From the NCBI GenBank assembly GCA_965215265.1, contig OZ244048.1, forward strand, positions 2,752,001 to 2,816,000: a DNA stretch of 64,000 nucleotides, in the 5' to 3' direction. Positions 10,687-54,306 of this stretch are shown here, one piece after another. A program made the translations under genes and the position numbers. The DNA is from Candidatus Poribacteria bacterium. Its GTDB lineage: Bacteria; Poribacteria; WGA-4E; WGA-3G. Under the pieces are notes generated by a model. The model did no database searches and was not told the DNA's origin. It saw only the letters and a program-made list of their open reading frames with translations. The stretch's first letter is position 1, and every line of letters starts with the position of its first letter.

Positions 10687-11790
10687 CTAAGATTGTAAAC
10701 GCATCGGCATGATGACGCAGATATGTTCGTCATCATCGGCCGGTTTAATCGCAACAGGTGTCGTCTCATCAGAGAATTCTAGTACCACTCTCTCTGCCTC
10801 GATGTGTGCCAAGACATCCATCAGGAAGCGTGCGTCGAAACCGATTCGTACCGTTCCGGTTGATGATTCGACGGGCAAGTTCTCATGTGCCTCACCGAGT
10901 TCGGGTGTCTTGGTGGAAATGCGCAGCGTTTGAGTGTCGATTTCTAATGAGATGGCATAGTTCTTGGGGTTCGACAATAATGAGACGCGTCTCGCTGCGC
11001 GGAGTGCTGCTTCTCTATCTAAGATGGTGCGTCCTTCTGTGGATTCGGGAATTATCTTCTGATAAGGTGGATAGTCGCCCTCTATCAAGCGTGTCGTCAA
11101 AGTCGAGGTGCCGTCTGAGAAGAGGATCTGGTTTTCAAAGACGGCGATGCTGACGGCAGGGGAATCGGCGAAGGTTTTGGCGATTTCGCGAACTGCCTTG
11201 AGCGGCAGGATAAAATCTGTCGCTTTCCCGGATGCGACGACGGGTGCGCAATAGGCAATAGCGAGTTGATGGCCGTCGGTTGCGACAATTTCTGTGCGTT
11301 CTTCACCCAAGTTAAAATAGAGTCCGTTTAGAGAATAGCGCACTTCCTCCGTAGATGCTGCAAATTGGGTTTTGCGTAGCAACCCACGCAGCACCTCACC
11401 GTCTATACTCAACGCCTCACTGTCAACAGTGGGAAGCTGAGGGAATTCTTCATCCGGAAGCCCGATAATGATATAGACACCGTCACCACAAGTGAGCTCG
11501 ACCCGGTCGTTCGCCATCGTAGTCAGCGTTATCGTTTTGTCGCCGGGCAATTCTTTGACGATGTCTGTCAACTTTTTGGCAGAGACGGTAATTGCCCCCT
11601 CTTCCTGAATCGTTCCTTCCACGTGCAGGCGGATGCCGACTTCCAAGTCCGTGGCGATGCATTCTATGTTGCCCGCGCTGGCGTTAATCAGCACGTTTGA
11701 AAGAATGGGTAAGGTAGCCCGACCACTTGCCACGCCTTGTAGCACTTGTAAGGACTGCAAAAATTCATCTTTATCAAAAACTAATTCCAT
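10687..11790 (-). CDS. dnaN: DNA polymerase III beta sliding clamp, copy 2
   Basis: 367 aa; TLPILSNVL, ATDLE, ATDGHQL, EGDYPPY, VIMPMR. Confidence 0.95.
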   Translation of the reverse strand: MELVFDKDEFLQSLQVLQGVASGRATLPILSNVLINASAGNIECIATDLEVGIRLHVEGTIQEEGAITVSAKKLTDIVKELPGDKTITLTTMANDRVELTCGDGVYIIIGLPDEEFPQLPTVDSEALSIDGEVLRGLLRKTQFAASTEEVRYSLNGLYFNLGEERTEIVATDGHQLAIAYCAPVVASGKATDFILPLKAVREIAKTFADSPAVSIAVFENQILFSDGTSTLTTRLIEGDYPPYQKIIPESTEGRTILDREAALRAARRVSLLSNPKNYAISLEIDTQTLRISTKTPELGEAHENLPVESSTGTVRIGFDARFLMDVLAHIEAERVVLEFSDETTPVAIKPADDDEHICVIMPMRLQS

Positions 11791-46911: not shown

Positions 46912-47958
46912 TTAGGCTTTTGCTTCTTCAGAGATGAACAGTGCATCAACGAAATCTGCTGCTGCGAAATCCTGTAAATCATCTAGCCGTTCGCCAACGC
47001 CGATGAGTTTGACAGGTGCCCCAATTTCTGACTTGACTGCCAAGACGATACCGCCTTTGGCTGTCCCATCTAATTTTGTCACAACGACACCTGTAATCGG
47101 GACAGCATCGTTGAAAACCTTTGCCTGCATCAACGCGTTTTGTCCAACCGTACCGTCAATGACAAGTAGTACTTCGTGGGGTGCCTCGGCGTGCAGGCGT
47201 GTCATGACGCGTCCAATTTTCGCCAATTCATCCATCAACGGTTTTTTGGTGTGGAGCCTACCTGCAGTGTCTACAATCAGCACGTCTGCCTCACGATTTT
47301 TCGCAGCATGAACCGCATCAAACACGACAGATGCGGGCTCTGCATCTGCTCCACCGCGGATCAGTTCTGCATTTGCACGTTCGCACCAAATCGCCAACTG
47401 TTCTTCTGCAGCGGCGCGGAACGTATCGCCTGCAGCGACGACAACACGTAGGCCTTCGGACCGGAAACGGCTCGCCAATTTACCTATCGTTGTGGTTTTT
47501 CCTGCACCATTTACACCCAGTACCAAAATTGTGTAAGGTTTTTCGGCTACTCGGGACGGAATTTGTGCTGCATCAGTTCCAACGCCTTCGCGCGAAATCT
47601 CCCCTATCTTCAACGGGATGTTATCGCCTAACAGTTTGAGAATCTCTTCTTTGAGGACTGACTCCAATTCCGAAGAATCATGCAAGCCTTTTGCTTTGAC
47701 AGCAGCTCTGACATTATCCATCAACGTCAGCGTTGTATCAACGCCGACATCCGCTCGAATTAAAATTTCTTCAATCTCTTCCATCAACTCTTCGTCAATT
47801 TGCCTGCCGACGCGGAGTAACCCAGAGAGTTGACTCAGGAACTCCTTTCGAGTTTTCGCTAAACCGGACTTAAGACGATCCAACCAATTCTGTTTTTTAT
47901 CACTTACCTCTGAATCAGCGCGGTTTTTATTGGGACTTCTCAATAATTTTTTAAGCAT
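46912..47958 (-). CDS. ftsY: Signal recognition particle receptor
   Basis: GVNGAGKTTT, DTFRAAA, DTAGR, TKLDGTAKGG, GVGE; start ATG 47958 after AAGGAG. Confidence 0.97.
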   Translation of the reverse strand: MLKKLLRSPNKNRADSEVSDKKQNWLDRLKSGLAKTRKEFLSQLSGLLRVGRQIDEELMEEIEEILIRADVGVDTTLTLMDNVRAAVKAKGLHDSSELESVLKEEILKLLGDNIPLKIGEISREGVGTDAAQIPSRVAEKPYTILVLGVNGAGKTTTIGKLASRFRSEGLRVVVAAGDTFRAAAEEQLAIWCERANAELIRGGADAEPASVVFDAVHAAKNREADVLIVDTAGRLHTKKPLMDELAKIGRVMTRLHAEAPHEVLLVIDGTVGQNALMQAKVFNDAVPITGVVVTKLDGTAKGGIVLAVKSEIGAPVKLIGVGERLDDLQDFAAADFVDALFISEEAKA

Positions 47959-48259
47959 CCATTCTCCTTTATACATTGCTGAATTGACATATTAATTGTT
48001 GCTGTAGAACCTCTAACGAGATAATACGAAACGTGTCGGGTTCTTGCCTCTCTTCTACTTTGACGGGTGCCCAGAAATATTTCCTCCTTTCAAAACAGTT
48101 TATCACAGAACACGAAATTAGCGAAGTTAATTCTTAATTTTGATACAAACGCGTATCTGCAGCCCGTGGCAAGAGATAGCGCGATGAATGACCTGACTAC
48201 GAATAGCACAGTCTGACATTGCACCATCCACCACGGCAGGCTTTTCTGAAAAAAAAGCA

Positions 48260-49963
48260 TTAATACAAAATATGCACCCGATTCTTACCGCGAACCGTCT
48301 CATCCGGCATGACAAGCGGCATCTCAACCACGGCGATGAAACTACCATCTGGACTGATAGCCAACGTATCGTAAGGGAGCTGCCCCGCCACGCGGTAAGT
48401 ATCAATGTATTTGGACAAACCGCTTCCCTCTGCCATCAGATCGAATACTGAAACACCGTGAAGACTTTCATTTGGGCCCTGGCTCCGCTTTGAGACAGCT
48501 AGTGCAGCATAACGCCCGGGCGCATCAATCCGTAAACCTTGCGGCATATTTTCAAGCTGCCACTGCCACCGTTTTTCACCTGTCCACGAGTAAGCAAACA
48601 ACGTCAAGCCATTCGGATGCGCAGCCGCCGGACGTTGCGCACCCTTCTGTAAATGATACGGAATATAGGTATCTCCAGTGACAAAGAGTGCTGCAGCATC
48701 CGTTGCACCGATAGTCCCCGCGGTAGCGATAATCGGAACACCGCTTACCTCCAGCGGTGCTGCCAAATGGTGCTGCCAGATTGGATGCGATGTGTTCACA
48801 TCAAAGATGAAGGCGCGCCCATCGTCCGTTGTAACGTTGATAAAGCTACCATCAGGCGATATACCGACACCACGCCAAAATGTTACACCTGCAAAGTAGG
48901 GCTTGAGCGGTTCAATACTCGATTGCCACCGTTGCTTCCCTGTTTGCAGGTCAATGACACTCAGCCTGCCTTTACCCTTGCCGCTTTCATCGCTTAACAG
49001 TGCGAACGTTTTTCCGTCCGCACTAACATCAAACCAACGTAGTATCTGTGGTAGAGCACCATCAGCAGGCCACTTCCATGTGACAGTGCCTGTCTTTCCA
49101 TCAAAACGGTAAAGCTGCGATTTCAGCATCCGCACACCGTTTTCTTGCCACGAATGCATACTGGAAACGAGCAAGCCATCATCCGGCAGCGTGAACATCC
49201 GAGAAGGCCCAGGGTATTGTATCCATGCATAGACACTCCCTGGGTCCGACGGGATAGAAGTTTCAATGTCGTCAGCTGTACGATATTTCCATAGTAATTG
49301 TTTCGAATTTATATCATACGCATAGATAAATCCATCCGCTGCTTGTTCACCAATATAGAGTCGATTTCCATTATCACCAAACGCGACATGCCTGACATAG
49401 CCCTCCGAAATCCGCGTCTTCCAAACTGTGCGCCCCGTGAGCAGCTCAATTACTCCGATGTATCCAGCATCCGTTGCAATCGCTAATAAACGGTTTTGTA
49501 AACTACCGCCTAACGCCACCGTAGTAGGTTTCGCCGGCCGTCGCAAATTTTCTATTAACGCCAACAAACCATCCAATTCAATCGTCTGAATTGGGTAGAG
49601 GGCAGGTTTTAGCGGTGCCCGGGCATCCGCAATATGCACTCCTGCATCAGACGTGACTTTCAAACGATAGCTCTGATTCGGAACCCATGCAAACTGAATC
49701 AGCGCGCGCTCGGACGTGAGCTGCAGCATGGATACAGGAACATCCGCAGCCTCCTTTTCTGTTATTGACGCAACATCGATTTTGAGTGCGTGCGGTGTTT
49801 CAATCACCGCTCCAACGCGTGTCCACACGACATTGATGCCAGCATTCTTTGTTAGTTGTTCATCTCCATAAGCAGTCCGTACAGCACTGATAAGGACGAT
49901 AACCAATAAACAAAGCCAGGTAACAGTACAATTTTCTCCTAAACAGATTTGATTTTTCTTCAT
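48260..49963 (-). CDS. Exported PQQ-like/WD40 beta-propeller protein (third gene of the B12 riboswitch operon)
   Basis: Signal peptide; repeated TG...W and SPDG blades. Confidence 0.7.
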   Translation of the reverse strand: MKKNQICLGENCTVTWLCLLVIVLISAVRTAYGDEQLTKNAGINVVWTRVGAVIETPHALKIDVASITEKEAADVPVSMLQLTSERALIQFAWVPNQSYRLKVTSDAGVHIADARAPLKPALYPIQTIELDGLLALIENLRRPAKPTTVALGGSLQNRLLAIATDAGYIGVIELLTGRTVWKTRISEGYVRHVAFGDNGNRLYIGEQAADGFIYAYDINSKQLLWKYRTADDIETSIPSDPGSVYAWIQYPGPSRMFTLPDDGLLVSSMHSWQENGVRMLKSQLYRFDGKTGTVTWKWPADGALPQILRWFDVSADGKTFALLSDESGKGKGRLSVIDLQTGKQRWQSSIEPLKPYFAGVTFWRGVGISPDGSFINVTTDDGRAFIFDVNTSHPIWQHHLAAPLEVSGVPIIATAGTIGATDAAALFVTGDTYIPYHLQKGAQRPAAAHPNGLTLFAYSWTGEKRWQWQLENMPQGLRIDAPGRYAALAVSKRSQGPNESLHGVSVFDLMAEGSGLSKYIDTYRVAGQLPYDTLAISPDGSFIAVVEMPLVMPDETVRGKNRVHILY

Positions 49964-49989
49964 TTTTATAATCCTCTATTTATCACGTT

Positions 49990-51861
49990 TTAATCCGAAA
50001 CCCGCCAAAGTCCCCTACCCAAACGGGCCCCTAAAAGTACGCCGATAAAGGTATAGGCGAAACCTTCAACAAAAATACGTAGAAACATATACCATTCCGC
50101 ATAGAACAATCGATAGAAGACGATTGAGAGTTGGAAATCAACATAAACAGCGAGCGCATCGCAAATTCCCAACGCGACTGCCCACGCCAATAAACCACGG
50201 TGCTGCACAAACCAGAATCCTGTTTCAAGCAACAGCACGCTTGTACTCGTATAGATAATCATCATCGGGGTAAAAAGCCCAAACGTGATACCCCCGAGTA
50301 GCAACCCAACAGCAGAAACCAGGAGGATTACCCCCGGTTTACCGCCGCCGGTGCCCCTCTTCCCTCTCGGTTCCCCACCGATATAGAATAACAGCGCAGT
50401 CAATAGGGCATAGTAGAACGTCTCGTTAACCAGACCCGTCAGCAGCACAGAGACAGGACCCAGTACAGAACGGATCAGATTCATGAAGAGCGTTGACGGA
50501 ATAATAACGCATACAAACACAGTCGCACCGAAAAGCGCGATGACAATCAGCTGTTTTGTTGAGAACAGCGAAAAAAAACGGGTGTGAAATCGGAGCACCA
50601 CTCCTAATCCGATAATGCTCACCATCACTGCTGCCCCAGTCACAAACAATGCATGGCGATTGGGTATAATAATCTGAAGCGGACGTTCTGCGCGCAGCAC
50701 CGTAGTCCGACTGCCCCAGATCTTCACCTCAATCTCACGTTTGTAGTCGCCTGCCTGCGCGGCCACCATATCCAAATAAATCGGTAAGGGAATAGAGCTT
50801 AGCATTTGCGGTGGTAGGCTCGCAAAAGCGACGCTCCTGTCCGTCCCTGCGTTAACCGCATCGGGGGGCGTGAGAAACGGCACCGTCTCTCCGCTGTTTG
50901 CATCACGGTTAATAGCAGAAATAACAACATGGATAGTCTCCTGCCCATGATTGTGGAGTTTCACCGTTTGGTATGCCACCGGCTCATAAGCATCAATTGA
51001 GAGATGCCGCCATCGGCCGAGAACCGGCTGGGCATGATAGAGGGTATCCGTGCGCTGCCGTGCATCCACAACGCCCACTGCATCCGTAGGCATCTGAACC
51101 GATTCAATTGAAAGCAATCCGCCAATCTCCTCCACCGTTGCTGAACGCACACGCAATTGCACCTGCTGCTCCCACGTCTCATCCCCTTCAAACCTAACCC
51201 TACCACGAATTGTGGTGTTGTTAGAATTATCCGAAACTTCATGGATTTTCAGCACCAATTCACTATACCAGACCTCGCCGGCGACAGTAAATGTCCCGGA
51301 AGTTGATAAGCAGATTTGCTCATCAAGCGTCTCTTCTATCCAACCTTTTGGAAGTGAAACCACTGTAATTGCTTGCGGTAGACAGAGCTGAACACGAAAG
51401 TCAGCATTCACGTCTGCGTTCCCATTTTTCAAAAGCACCGTCGCCGTCACGTCACTGTTGTGGAGTACAAGAGATGCAGGGGGCGTAGACTGTGAGTGTG
51501 TCACCGCCGCCCCGTACGGAATTGAGATTTCCAGACTGCCGCGCGTCTGCACCTGGGGCGCGGTAACTGTTCGAACGCTGATATCGGAATTCGCGAGCAC
51601 TATCTCAAACCGATAGCGCTCGCCTTCGCGCCACTCAAAATAAAGCGATTCCACCTGACGAGGCGGCACAGGAAAATCAAGCCGCGCCACCTTCATACCC
51701 TCACGATTAAAAGCTGCAACGCTTTTGACTGAGGATGGAATGTGAAGCTTTGCCCCCAGTGGAAAAAACTCTATTTTCCATACAAGAGGTGTCTCTTTTC
51801 CTTTTTCACCACAACCCAATAGGAGTAGAGGGAAAAAGAGACACAATACCGATTTTCCCAT
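49990..51861 (-). CDS. Lipoprotein-signal protein with large soluble region and C-terminal ECF S-component-like membrane domain
   Basis: LLLLGC lipobox; C-terminal 6-7 TM beginning FSTKQLIVIALFGA with a KPG motif. Confidence 0.55.
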   Translation of the reverse strand: MGKSVLCLFFPLLLLGCGEKGKETPLVWKIEFFPLGAKLHIPSSVKSVAAFNREGMKVARLDFPVPPRQVESLYFEWREGERYRFEIVLANSDISVRTVTAPQVQTRGSLEISIPYGAAVTHSQSTPPASLVLHNSDVTATVLLKNGNADVNADFRVQLCLPQAITVVSLPKGWIEETLDEQICLSTSGTFTVAGEVWYSELVLKIHEVSDNSNNTTIRGRVRFEGDETWEQQVQLRVRSATVEEIGGLLSIESVQMPTDAVGVVDARQRTDTLYHAQPVLGRWRHLSIDAYEPVAYQTVKLHNHGQETIHVVISAINRDANSGETVPFLTPPDAVNAGTDRSVAFASLPPQMLSSIPLPIYLDMVAAQAGDYKREIEVKIWGSRTTVLRAERPLQIIIPNRHALFVTGAAVMVSIIGLGVVLRFHTRFFSLFSTKQLIVIALFGATVFVCVIIPSTLFMNLIRSVLGPVSVLLTGLVNETFYYALLTALLFYIGGEPRGKRGTGGGKPGVILLVSAVGLLLGGITFGLFTPMMIIYTSTSVLLLETGFWFVQHRGLLAWAVALGICDALAVYVDFQLSIVFYRLFYAEWYMFLRIFVEGFAYTFIGVLLGARLGRGLWRVSD

Positions 51862-51871
51862 ATCGTTATAC

Positions 51872-53119
51872 CTACTTCGGGCTATCGAAGGAATTTGCCA
51901 CTAACACAAGATCGCGAATATCAACCACTTCATCCATGTTGATATCAGCGAGTATCGCCTGTCCCTGTTCGCCCAGATATCGGCTCACAATGAAAAGATC
52001 TGCAGTGTCAATAAAGCCATCGTCATTGACATCTTCAGCCCTCGGCACAATCTGTGCAATTCCTATAATAGAGGCCCCCGGACCGACTTGATACGTTTGA
52101 CGGAGCGTCTCATCGGCTCCCATAATGCGCACCATATCCTGGCCGCCGCCAGTCCAATCTGGATAGGTGATATAGAGGCTCCCATCTGCCGTGAAAGCCA
52201 TACCGGAGCCGCCACCGAAATCAACAAGCGCATCCGCTTTATCGCGAACCCATCTTTCTGTGACTAAATCATAGATGAGAAGCCCCGGTGCCGGCCAGCC
52301 ACCTTGGATAAACAGCTTCTCTTCCGAATTGAGAGCAAAACTACCCGGTGCCATCTTAAGCGGTACTGTTTTGCGAACCTCAGCCGTGGCTGCATCAATC
52401 AGCACCAGATTTCCTGGGATGAGATTGTAATCGCCTATTGTTTTGACAATCACGGTATTCTCTCCATCGTTGAGAATACCACCTGCATTTGTCGGCATGG
52501 CGATGGACTTGAGAACAGTGTCTGTCTCGGTATCAATTACCGTCAGACTGCTATCGTGATAGTTAACTTTACGTGCCTCTGCATCGTACTCCCACGCAGG
52601 ATTGGTAATGTACGCCTTACCGTCCAGAACAGTTATCCCTGTCGGTTTGTTGAAAGGTCCCGTAATGGTTTTGGTCACATTCCGATTAGCAATGTCTATG
52701 ACATGTACTTCATGCACAGCGTCACACGTCACGTACATCCTGTTAACATCTACAAAAGCGAGACTCTGCGGTTGTGCACCTGCACGAATCGGAATTTCGC
52801 CCACAATCTCTCGCCGCTGAAGATTGATAATTAAGATGTTATTGCTATAAACGTTAGGAATATATGCGAGATGTCCCCGAATGAGCAAATCGCTCGGGAC
52901 ATTGCCCAGGGGAATAATCTGATTGTCAACAGCACGTTTCTCATTCGGTTCCATTAAATCTATAATTGAGAGAGATGTGGTAATACCCAACTCAGGGTGA
53001 GTCAGTGCGTTTACAACAACACCAAGATGCTGAACCTCTGCCTGTCCCAAAGCAGCACCAGCAAGCAGAATGAACAGGATACTACACGCTATGCATGTTT
53101 TAAAAAAACTTGTTTTCAT
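51872..53119 (-). CDS. YncE/YVTN-type beta-propeller with C-terminal dockerin (BtuG-like candidate)
   Basis: Start MKTSFF at 53119 after GGAGG; blades such as VHVIDIA, KAYITN, LTVIDTETDTV; DVNDDGFID / DINMDEVVDIRD. Confidence 0.75.
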   Translation of the reverse strand: MKTSFFKTCIACSILFILLAGAALGQAEVQHLGVVVNALTHPELGITTSLSIIDLMEPNEKRAVDNQIIPLGNVPSDLLIRGHLAYIPNVYSNNILIINLQRREIVGEIPIRAGAQPQSLAFVDVNRMYVTCDAVHEVHVIDIANRNVTKTITGPFNKPTGITVLDGKAYITNPAWEYDAEARKVNYHDSSLTVIDTETDTVLKSIAMPTNAGGILNDGENTVIVKTIGDYNLIPGNLVLIDAATAEVRKTVPLKMAPGSFALNSEEKLFIQGGWPAPGLLIYDLVTERWVRDKADALVDFGGGSGMAFTADGSLYITYPDWTGGGQDMVRIMGADETLRQTYQVGPGASIIGIAQIVPRAEDVNDDGFIDTADLFIVSRYLGEQGQAILADINMDEVVDIRDLVLVANSFDSPK

Positions 53120-53135
53120 TAAAACCTCCGTAATG

Positions 53136-53163
53136 AAACAAAAATCCCTGCTTTCGTCAGGGA
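53136..53163 (-). terminator. Probable riboswitch expression-platform terminator
   Basis: Minus strand TCCCTG-ACGAAAG-CAGGGA followed by TTTTTGTTT, just before the RBS. Confidence 0.6.
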
Positions 53164-53269
53164 AAACAGGGGCAACTTGGAGGCACGAACGCTTTTGCAA
53201 AGCGAAATTGCACATATCAATAGCACGTGCTGTTCCACTGCTCTCCCGCGAAAGCAATAGTGTGAACAC

Positions 53270-53445
53270 GACTCAGGCAGGTCTCCTGACTTCCGATCTT
53301 TCCGCTCCACCTTCCCATCAAACTGATAGTGGTTTTGAAGCGGATACTTTGCCCTTTTGGCAAAAAATCGTTCACAGTGGCGGGGCCGTGGCGGTTTCTC
53401 ACCGCGCTTCCCTATTCTCCGTAAAACGGCACCTGAACCGTAATG
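53270..53445 (-). promoter_or_regulatory. Cobalamin riboswitch
   Basis: Minus strand CAGGTGCC...AATAGGGAA.CGCGGTGAGAAACCGC.ACGGCCCCGCCACTGTGA...GGGAAGG...AAGTCAGGAGACCTGCC (B12 box). Confidence 0.95.
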
Positions 53446-53466
53446 TATTCAATTGTTATCAGGTAT

Positions 53467-53495
53467 ATTATATCACATTATAGTCCTTTTTGCAA
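53467..53495 (-). promoter_or_regulatory. sigma70 promoter for the riboswitch transcript
   Basis: TTGCAA-17-TATAAT with extended TG. Confidence 0.75.
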
Positions 53496-53541
53496 TTCTT
53501 TTTTTCATATTCCCAAATTCAGGCACCGATAGTTAATCAAC

Positions 53542-54306
53542 TTAATCCTGTGGTACTACGTCGGCGTAGGTGATATAAGTGGGGTGCGTGTTTTTGGAGT
53601 GAATGCCGTCGTCAGCGGCAGGCGGAATTTCTCTTTGGACGATTTGTCCCGGGCGAGCGTGAATCGGCGAAGTGAACATGGGGCCATCTATAACGCATGT
53701 GTGAAACTCGCCGTTTTCACCAAGTGCATCCACGCCATCCGGTAGGTCCGCGAGGAATTGCCGGTCGAACCATCTCCCCACAAATTCACTTGCTAACTTG
53801 ACAGGATTCGCGCACGTTATCATGGCACGCATGCCAGCGGCAATCATCCTCTCTGCCAATTGGGTGGTGTCTGTGCCCCATATCGGGAAAAGCGGGGTAA
53901 AACCGGTCCCGCTGAGATTGTCTTCGCGGTAACGCCGGATGTCTTCTAAGAAAAGATCGCCGAACGCGAAATGCGATACGCCCAAATCTTCTGGCAATGC
54001 CTGAATTTGTGTCAGGAAATGGCGCATAGCGGCTTCATATTGAGCGTTGGAACACGGAAACGGAATCCGTATCTCATAGAGCGGAACACCCAATTTTTCG
54101 GATTGCTGTTTCAGTACCCAGCGCGGTGTAGCGTGGATGGAAACGCGTTCAAACGTCTCAGTCACGGTGGTAAAAATACCACGTACATCGTAGCGCTCAG
54201 ACTGTTGACGAAGGGTATGGAGTGCCCAGGCCGAGTCTTTGCCTGAAGACCAAGAAACTAAAACCGGGATAGGCTGTATAGCATTAGTGATAGTAGTTGT
54301 GCTCAT
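53542..54306 (-). CDS. Dph6-related PP-loop ATP pyrophosphatase
   Basis: SWSSGKDS, FGDLFLEDIR.YRE, GENGEFHT. Confidence 0.88.
   Translation of the reverse strand: MSTTTITNAIQPIPVLVSWSSGKDSAWALHTLRQQSERYDVRGIFTTVTETFERVSIHATPRWVLKQQSEKLGVPLYEIRIPFPCSNAQYEAAMRHFLTQIQALPEDLGVSHFAFGDLFLEDIRRYREDNLSGTGFTPLFPIWGTDTTQLAERMIAAGMRAMITCANPVKLASEFVGRWFDRQFLADLPDGVDALGENGEFHTCVIDGPMFTSPIHARPGQIVQREIPPAADDGIHSKNTHPTYITYADVVPQD

Follow-up and report, generated by a model that had tools for sequence, protein, structure and literature searches.

Energy-coupling factor (ECF) transporters and proteins that capture vitamin B12 (cobalamin) are the closest described counterparts of the system reported here, a riboswitch-preceded operon of three genes (A, B and C) in a 64,000-nucleotide (nt) stretch of the genome of a sponge-associated Candidatus Poribacteria bacterium (GenBank assembly GCA_965215265.1, contig OZ244048.1, positions 2,752,001 to 2,816,000; this whole stretch is hereafter the window). 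The published accounts describe ECF-CbrT of Lactobacillus delbrueckii as an ECF-type vitamin B12 transporter (PDB 6FNP; PMC5997447), BtuG1-3 of Bacteroides as surface lipoproteins (PMC10404256; bioRxiv 10.1101/2024.02.16.580637) and BtuM as a solitary, S-component-like B12 binder with a cysteine ligand (PDB 8OVV; PMC6072759). In a 2019 gut-genome survey, only BtuBFCD and CbrT are named as known B12 importers, and the B12 transporters of many genomes are presented as an open problem (PMC6593275).

The operon shares features with each of these systems. Like ECF-CbrT, it would represent an ECF-type cobalamin system in a B12 auxotroph, with the gene for the six-helix S-component located away from the shared or orphan ECF module. 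CbrT, however, is a bare S-component of ~190 amino acids (aa), with which B shares no detected sequence similarity; B adds a lipid anchor, an immunoglobulin (Ig)-like ectodomain of ~380 residues and an extra helix, and its operon adds two extracytoplasmic propellers and a riboswitch. A resembles BtuG in being an extracytoplasmic YVTN/YncE-type propeller within a B12 regulon, but differs in its Sec signal, its dockerin, the lack of an adjacent BtuB and, in some lineages, a type IX secretion system (T9SS) sorting domain, the two having been compared at profile level. With BtuM, B has in common the S-component fold and the absence of ECF genes nearby, whereas it lacks a conserved cysteine in the membrane domain, possesses an ectodomain and has ECF-linked relatives. 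CbiMNQO and NikMNQO (PDB 5X3X, 4M5C) likewise share the S fold with B; these transporters are often riboswitch-controlled and cluster with cobalamin genes. Unlike in those systems, the S-core of B has no free N-terminus, and the genome is devoid of the corrin-synthesis genes searched. The proposed function, finally, parallels that of BtuB-BtuFCD in combining capture outside, a periplasmic partner, an ATP-driven step at the inner membrane and riboswitch control, yet the proteins are unrelated, and a BtuFCD-like cluster elsewhere in the genome has no riboswitch. Overall, the system resembles an ECF vitamin transporter such as ECF-CbrT joined to a BtuG-like scavenger; it differs in having an S family unlike the named ones in sequence, the fused, lipid-anchored ectodomain with its extra helix, the conserved propeller partner and the dockerin tether. 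No description of such a system was found in the literature searched, which left most subscription journals out of reach and is no proof of absence.

From sequence and predicted structure we infer cobamide binding and transport, and we consider it probable that the operon encodes a riboswitch-repressed cobamide capture and ECF-type import system. At high cobalamin, the riboswitch would bind its ligand and the terminator hairpin ahead of A would form; at low cobalamin, A, B and C would be transcribed. The secreted, BtuG-related A would capture cobamides outside the cytoplasmic membrane, with its dockerin holding it on a cohesin-bearing protein of the cell envelope. B would act as a new kind of ECF S-component, composed of lipid anchor, Ig-like ectodomains, extra helix and a six-helix substrate-translocating core, and would dock onto the only module of fused double ATPase and EcfT (EcfAA'-EcfT) in the genome, which would power import. 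C, a periplasmic BamB-like propeller kept with B across distant lineages, may serve as an extracytoplasmic partner, handing over substrate or helping assembly.

A cobalamin riboswitch ahead of three tightly spaced genes

An Rfam scan of the window returned a single cobalamin riboswitch, which matched RF00174 over model positions 1-189 of 189 (99.5 bits, E 1.2e-23, gathering score 31.5) and also represents the only RF00174 match in the window's own genome, a single contig of 4.83 Mb that is 95% complete by marker genes. The aptamer lies on the same strand as the operon, 140 nt ahead of the ATG of gene A (Table 1), and encloses the stretch (53270-53445, minus strand) in which an earlier note on this DNA had recognized a B12 riboswitch. 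The terminator that the note had placed ahead of the operon was seen as well: the 10-pair stem is followed by ATTTTTGTTT, the hairpin stops 27 nt short of the ATG at 53119, and the leader between 53110 and 53270 has a folding z of -3.87. Mechanical translation would start gene A from a GTG at 53269, overlapping the aptamer; as this frame begins inside the aptamer, the ATG, which has GGAGG ahead of it, is most likely the true start. The promoter-like site upstream of the aptamer is only plausible and weak on its own, since the consensus scan of the region gave 10 such sites against 9.2 expected by chance and shuffled sequence gives about as many. The three genes follow one another with gaps of 10 and 26 nt, the tight spacing described before, and neither the list of open reading frames (ORFs) nor Pfam revealed a BtuB, BtuFCD, EcfT or ATPase gene within the operon. 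Domain calls likewise agreed with the note's description of a YncE-type propeller with dockerin, a protein with lipoprotein signal and a PQQ-like propeller.

Table 1. Positions in the window of the operon, its leader and the flanking genes
Feature	Position	Strand	Details and source
Cobalamin riboswitch aptamer (RF00174)	53259..53451	-	Rfam
Terminator-type expression platform	53136..53171	-	10-pair stem (53171-53146) + T-run; pattern scan
Promoter-like TTGCAA-17 nt-TATAAT, upstream TG	53467..53495	-	consensus scan; ~16 nt before aptamer
Gene A, 415 aa	51872..53119	-	Sec signal 53045-53119; YVTN/YncE-type propeller ~52055-53044; type I dockerin 51890-52036
Gene B, 623 aa	49990..51861	-	lipoprotein signal 51811-51861; Ig-like ectodomain 50659-51810; extra helix (TM0) 50590-50658; six-helix core 49996-50559
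Gene C, 567 aa	48260..49963	-	signal peptide, then PQQ_2/BamB-like beta-propeller
Dph6-like ATP pyrophosphatase gene	53542..54306	-	Diphthami_syn_2, 88.5 bits; Pfam
ftsY	46912..47976	-	TIGR00064, 343.5 bits

The arrangement recurs in other Poribacteria. Those B homologues that carry source names come from Candidatus Poribacteria, and the order riboswitch-A-B-C was present in all four named Poribacteria loci fetched, with differing flanks. In a sample of 121 Poribacteria genomes, the membrane domain of B occurred in one copy in 113, namely in all genomes from the four families in the window's order, and in none of the 8 genomes of other families. A same-strand cobalamin riboswitch preceded B by 1.5-9.7 kb (median 2.9 kb) in 109 of the 113 B-carrying genomes and was the only one detected in the genome in 105 of these 109. 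As to the four exceptions, one had no detected riboswitch, with B near the contig start, two had riboswitch and B on different contigs, and one had both on the same contig, unlinked. Three distant B lineages from separate parts of the family tree also showed an upstream riboswitch, in the order riboswitch-TonB-dependent receptor-B-ATPase in one (L021) and directly before B in the other two (L047 and L061, the latter sister to the Phascolarctobacterium type). The association of B homologues with riboswitches, which the earlier note had named as a test of its proposal, was thus found within and beyond the phylum. In one further, ECF-linked lineage (locus L073), a weak cobalamin riboswitch (39.2 bits, 11484-11609) lies downstream of a C-like gene and directly before cbiD, not upstream of B.

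Gene B and the orphan ECF module

B has no Pfam or NCBIfam family match and hence falls into no curated S-component family, and profiles built from the entire protein or from the membrane domain alone retrieved nothing significant from PDB sequences (OspA; a cohesin at E 1; IrtA at E 0.14). Its lipoprotein-type signal, LLLGC with the cysteine at position 17, is kept across the family. An AlphaFold (AF2) model of whole B, built with 40 diverse homologues, reached a predicted local distance difference test (pLDDT) score of 87.9, with beta-strands in residues 29-398 and helices in residues 402-622. Foldseek matched this model only to Ig-like repeat proteins (integrins, alpha-2-macroglobulin), which shows the make-up of the ectodomain and not its function. 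Residues 396-623 folded alone with 44 homologues gave a pLDDT of 90.9 and a predicted template-modelling score (pTM) of 0.88; for this membrane domain, Foldseek returned nothing at E <= 0.001, the top match being 5edl, an ECF S-component (E 8.3e-3, TM 0.49/0.55).

Complementarily, the membrane domain was aligned with VIA-align to 48,161 representative chains. Ranks 1-12 were taken exclusively by S-components, some as chain S of an ECF complex (Z 13.8 to 8.7), in line with the earlier remark that the C-terminus of B resembles an ECF S-component: 5edl_A (Z 13.8, root-mean-square deviation 2.8 over 170 residues), TmRibU (12.2), 4huq_S (11.5), 4hzu_S (11.2), RibU (10.9), a NikM-type protein (10.3), BioY (9.6), two ThiT (9.2 and 9.1), FolT (8.9), BtuM (8.7) and CbiM (8.7). 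CbrT (6fnp_E) followed at rank 35 with Z 6.1. As Z values below ~13 can reflect a common arrangement among helical bundles, which counts against a reading from fold alone, independent support is needed and is supplied by gene context; the S-component assignment of B rests on these two lines.

The extra helix (residues 402-424) makes topological sense, since S-components start on the cytoplasmic side, to which it would return the chain after the ectodomain. Helix 1 of S-components docks on EcfT through a small-xxx-small (AxxxA) motif, and helix 1 of B reads A442-L-F-G-A446, conserved as [AS]-L-F-[GA]-[ATS] in 44 sequences. The S-core begins at about residue 435, after ectodomain and TM0, leaving its N-terminus not free. 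A word-based search revealed no family of bare S-cores, only 24 short close relatives (42-79% identity) that look like fragments. As a separate observation, a Gly/Lys/Arg-rich loop insertion in the S-core (residues 496-510, 50332-50376 in the window), modelled with low confidence, is shared by the Poribacteria clade but missing in distant homologues.

The B family comprises 361 representative clusters at 50% identity, with members labelled only 'hypothetical protein' in their sources, and was found in Poribacteria, in Phascolarctobacterium succinatutens from the human gut and in an Actinomycetota lineage. For gene neighbourhoods, 80 metagenome loci from a family alignment scan and the 4 named loci were clustered by their membrane domains (75% identity), which gave 36 clusters; same-strand neighbours were annotated with Pfam in 13 loci and by sequence search across all clusters, and the counts are lower bounds, several loci being cut at contig ends. 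B was accompanied by an ABC ATPase, usually of the ~550-aa fused double type, in 29 of the 36 clusters, by a C-like propeller in 24, by CbiQ/EcfT in 23, by a TonB-dependent receptor in 14, by CobN in 7, by an A-like propeller in 5, by ChlI/D-like genes in 3, and by CbiZ and CbiD in 2 each. The usual gene order is B-EcfAA'-EcfT-C. With an S-component fold encoded beside EcfAA' and EcfT, B qualifies as that transporter's S-component under the usual definition. The substrate may differ between branches of the family. The A-B-C type forms one clade without ECF genes nearby. Its sister group (loci L013 and L017) has only one ABC ATPase plus an unannotated ~235-aa gene directly before B, with no C-like gene and no riboswitch in view.

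The window's own genome holds exactly one CbiQ/EcfT gene (3548356-3549009), located directly after a fused double ATPase (EcfAA', 522 aa) and 0.75 Mb from the operon. This is the architecture of the B-linked modules in distant lineages, and EcfAA' is 33% identical over 518 residues to the gut-type ATPase, of which it is the best match in the genome. The general S-component family PF12822 and BioY, the two S families searched, are both absent from the genome. EcfT was present in 113 of 113 B-carrying genomes, in single copy in all but one, and in 0 of 5 B-lacking genomes of the same class; each of the three B-lacking genomes from the remaining families carries two or three copies of EcfT. Such co-occurrence is what a partnership between B and the ECF module would predict. 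A gene for a B12-binding radical SAM protein (660 aa, DUF4070) precedes EcfAA' and EcfT in the window's genome (3548167-3552954), and the same order was seen in four of five other Poribacteria genomes, from other genera.

These data bear on an alternative in which B, as has been proposed for BtuM, works as a solitary S-component and imports cobamides without an ECF module, the orphan EcfAA'-EcfT serving something else. The operon lacks EcfT and ATPase genes, the whole A-B-C clade lacks nearby ECF genes, and BtuM is among the fold matches. We nevertheless regard a solitary B as unlikely: EcfAA' and EcfT stand beside most distant B homologues, EcfT accompanies B in every B-carrying genome sampled, the window's genome keeps a single ECF module, searches with two S families found no further S-component in it, and B has no conserved cysteine of the BtuM type. 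Of the proposal in the earlier note, which pointed to solitary S-components such as BtuM, the fold stood, while a solitary state of B probably does not hold, given the single orphan module and the distant homologues that adjoin such modules.

The extracytoplasmic propellers A and C

Gene A matched Dockerin_1 (PF00404) in residues 362-410 (30.2 bits, cut-off 22.9) and the YVTN repeat model TIGR02276 (40.1 bits, cut-off 27.85), with Pfam YNCE below cut-off. A profile of 10 A homologues, searched against PDB sequences, gave 16 matches at E <= 0.01, 12 of which are BtuG1, BtuG2 or BtuG3 by the PDB codes assigned in PMC10404256 and bioRxiv 10.1101/2024.02.16.580637. BtuG1 (8PTD/8PTF) was matched at E 6e-14 in one stretch covering query residues 73-297 (~225 residues), BtuG1 of the BtuB1G1 complex (8BLW_B) at 1.6e-13, and BtuG3 and BtuG2 at about 7e-8. 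At profile level, BtuG1 is the closest characterised relative of A. With a Sec signal and no adjacent BtuB, A is not strictly a BtuG; no lipobox was found in its signal and no TonB-dependent receptor in the operon.

A dockerin is present in most, not all, A homologues. In one Poribacteria genus the operon is split into riboswitch-B-C and an A homologue (48-51% identical, with dockerin and T9SS sorting domain) that has a second riboswitch of its own, in four of four genomes (loci L089, L092, L093 and L094 in genomes G007, G003, G022 and G038, respectively), which is independent evidence that A is part of the B12 regulon. A cohesin-domain gene encoding a 349-aa protein follows the A homologue in three of these four genomes, which suggests a dedicated cohesin protein, and not B, as the partner of the dockerin. 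In two versions of A, the T9SS sorting domain scores above cut-off, which points to exposure at the cell surface. Cohesin-like sequences also occur elsewhere in the window's genome, near 0.213, 1.511 and 2.570 Mb. At 1509056-1512825, a 1023-aa WD40-repeat protein with a cohesin-like C-terminal part adjoins, on the opposite strand, the gene for a PduO-type adenosyltransferase, which may be coincidence.

Gene C passes the cut-off only for the general PQQ_2 repeat family (53.6 bits, cut-off 27.6). BamB itself was rejected as an assignment, the TIGR03300 equivalog scoring 35.7 bits against a cut-off of 285.2. PDB sequences yielded nothing informative for C, and ESM Atlas only BamB/PQQ_2-like clusters with scores <= 0.86. 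The BtuG likeness raised in the earlier note belongs to A and not to C. A partnership of C with B is suggested by its conserved position beside B.

Substrate and alternative explanations

The window's genome encodes neither CbiC nor CobS nor CbiB, and CobN, CbiD and CbiZ gave no tblastn match. With these six searched genes of corrin synthesis and cobinamide salvage absent, the cell can use only complete cobamide, and B12-sensed import of cobalt would be useless. This absence is, at the level of gene content, our main argument for cobamide over cobalt. Users of the cofactor are present: MetH occurs as a 1263-aa frame with both B12 domains, two or three further proteins have a B12-binding domain (two above the family cut-off), and the PduO-type adenosyltransferase is encoded.

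Import of cobalt or another metal, in the manner of riboswitch-controlled CbiMNQO, is distinctly unlikely on these grounds, even though B12 riboswitches often control cobalt transporters, CobN and ChlI/D-like genes adjoin B in some clusters, and NikM-type and CbiM structures (Z 10.3 and 8.7) are among the fold matches. CbiM and NikM use a free N-terminal amine in the metal site, which an S-core fused to TM0 cannot supply. In addition, A is related to the B12-binding BtuG1, and CbiZ and TonB-dependent receptors neighbour B in other lineages, further arguing against a metal. Highly improbable, in our view, is a B12-repressed envelope function that replaces B12 or is needed only without it, comparable to metE repression, with the S-like domain as anchor or sensor. 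Cobalamin riboswitches do repress B12-independent isozymes too, B and C belong to no named family and showed no identifiable catalytic or binding site; yet A, B and C contain no enzyme domain, the linkage of B to EcfAA'-EcfT genes in distant lineages argues for transport, and the BtuG relation of A for corrinoid binding. Another tetrapyrrole or a B12 precursor (haem, cobinamide or lower ligand) as substrate can hardly be credited, for while distant homologues have TonB-dependent receptors and CobN-like genes at their flanks, as also happens in haem loci, and CbiZ, which acts in cobinamide salvage, stands beside B in two clusters, sensing of haem by a cobalamin riboswitch is not expected, and without CobS and CbiB neither cobinamide nor lower ligand could be completed.

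Several observations weigh against riboswitch-repressed cobamide import by A, B and C. At 4.132-4.140 Mb, the genome carries a cluster with a TonB-dependent receptor, a BtuF/FecB-like binding protein, a BtuC/FecCD-like permease and a haem-type ATPase, all matching below equivalog cut-offs and without a riboswitch. This cluster could carry iron complexes, haem or B12 and could form a second, or the real, B12 route, so the operon may not be the only one. Three short MetE-type proteins are encoded, and methionine synthesis may therefore not strictly require B12. Nor does an S-component fold reveal the substrate, the nearest structures being YkoE and RibU, with BtuM and CbrT lower, and no column of the membrane-domain alignment has >=30% cysteine, leaving no BtuM-like ligand residue. 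As the genomes compared are related, one event of gain or loss could account for the joint occurrence of B and EcfT. Outside the A-B-C clade, an upstream riboswitch was found in only 3 of 31 B clusters, many metagenome loci beginning inside the gene string with the upstream region out of view; at least four loci with that boundary in view (L013, L017, L039 and L060) have none. CobN beside B in 7 of the 36 clusters would also fit metal uptake. Finally, the top PDB match of A was an archaeal S-layer YVTN domain (1l0q, 7e-19), and hydrazine synthase beta at 1e-7 scored no worse than BtuG2 and BtuG3, which indicates that part of the BtuG signal of A is probably generic to the repeat type.

More tentatively, B may found an unannotated, widespread class of ECF transporters, in which an S-component with its own extracytoplasmic receiving domain is joined by the periplasmic propeller C and, in Poribacteria, by the tethered BtuG-like A; this class could then supply one of the B12 importers still missing for many bacteria, Phascolarctobacterium of the human gut among them. 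ECF transporters are not known to need extracytoplasmic capture proteins. If cobamide capture and ECF-type import hold true, the operon would represent a third type of B12 import and an ECF transporter able to use extracytoplasmic partner proteins. B-carrying Poribacteria would then depend on the cobamides of others, which bears on cobamide sharing in sponge microbiomes, and the putative B-type transporter subunit occurs in human gut bacteria as well (P. succinatutens).

Around the 4.132-4.140 Mb cluster, a wider stretch of the genome (4123024-4140742) encodes two TonB-dependent receptors, the BtuF/FecB- and BtuC/FecCD-like genes and the haem-type ATPase and, after these, a T9SS sorting-domain protein. 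The Dph6-like gene that the earlier note had pointed out on the same strand lies upstream of the promoter-like site. Its identity and orientation were as described, but it is not a conserved neighbour: among the compared loci it was present only in the window's own genome and in locus L020, there on the opposite strand, and it was rejected as a member of the system. On the other side, 283 nt downstream of gene C, the operon is followed by an ordinary housekeeping gene, ftsY.

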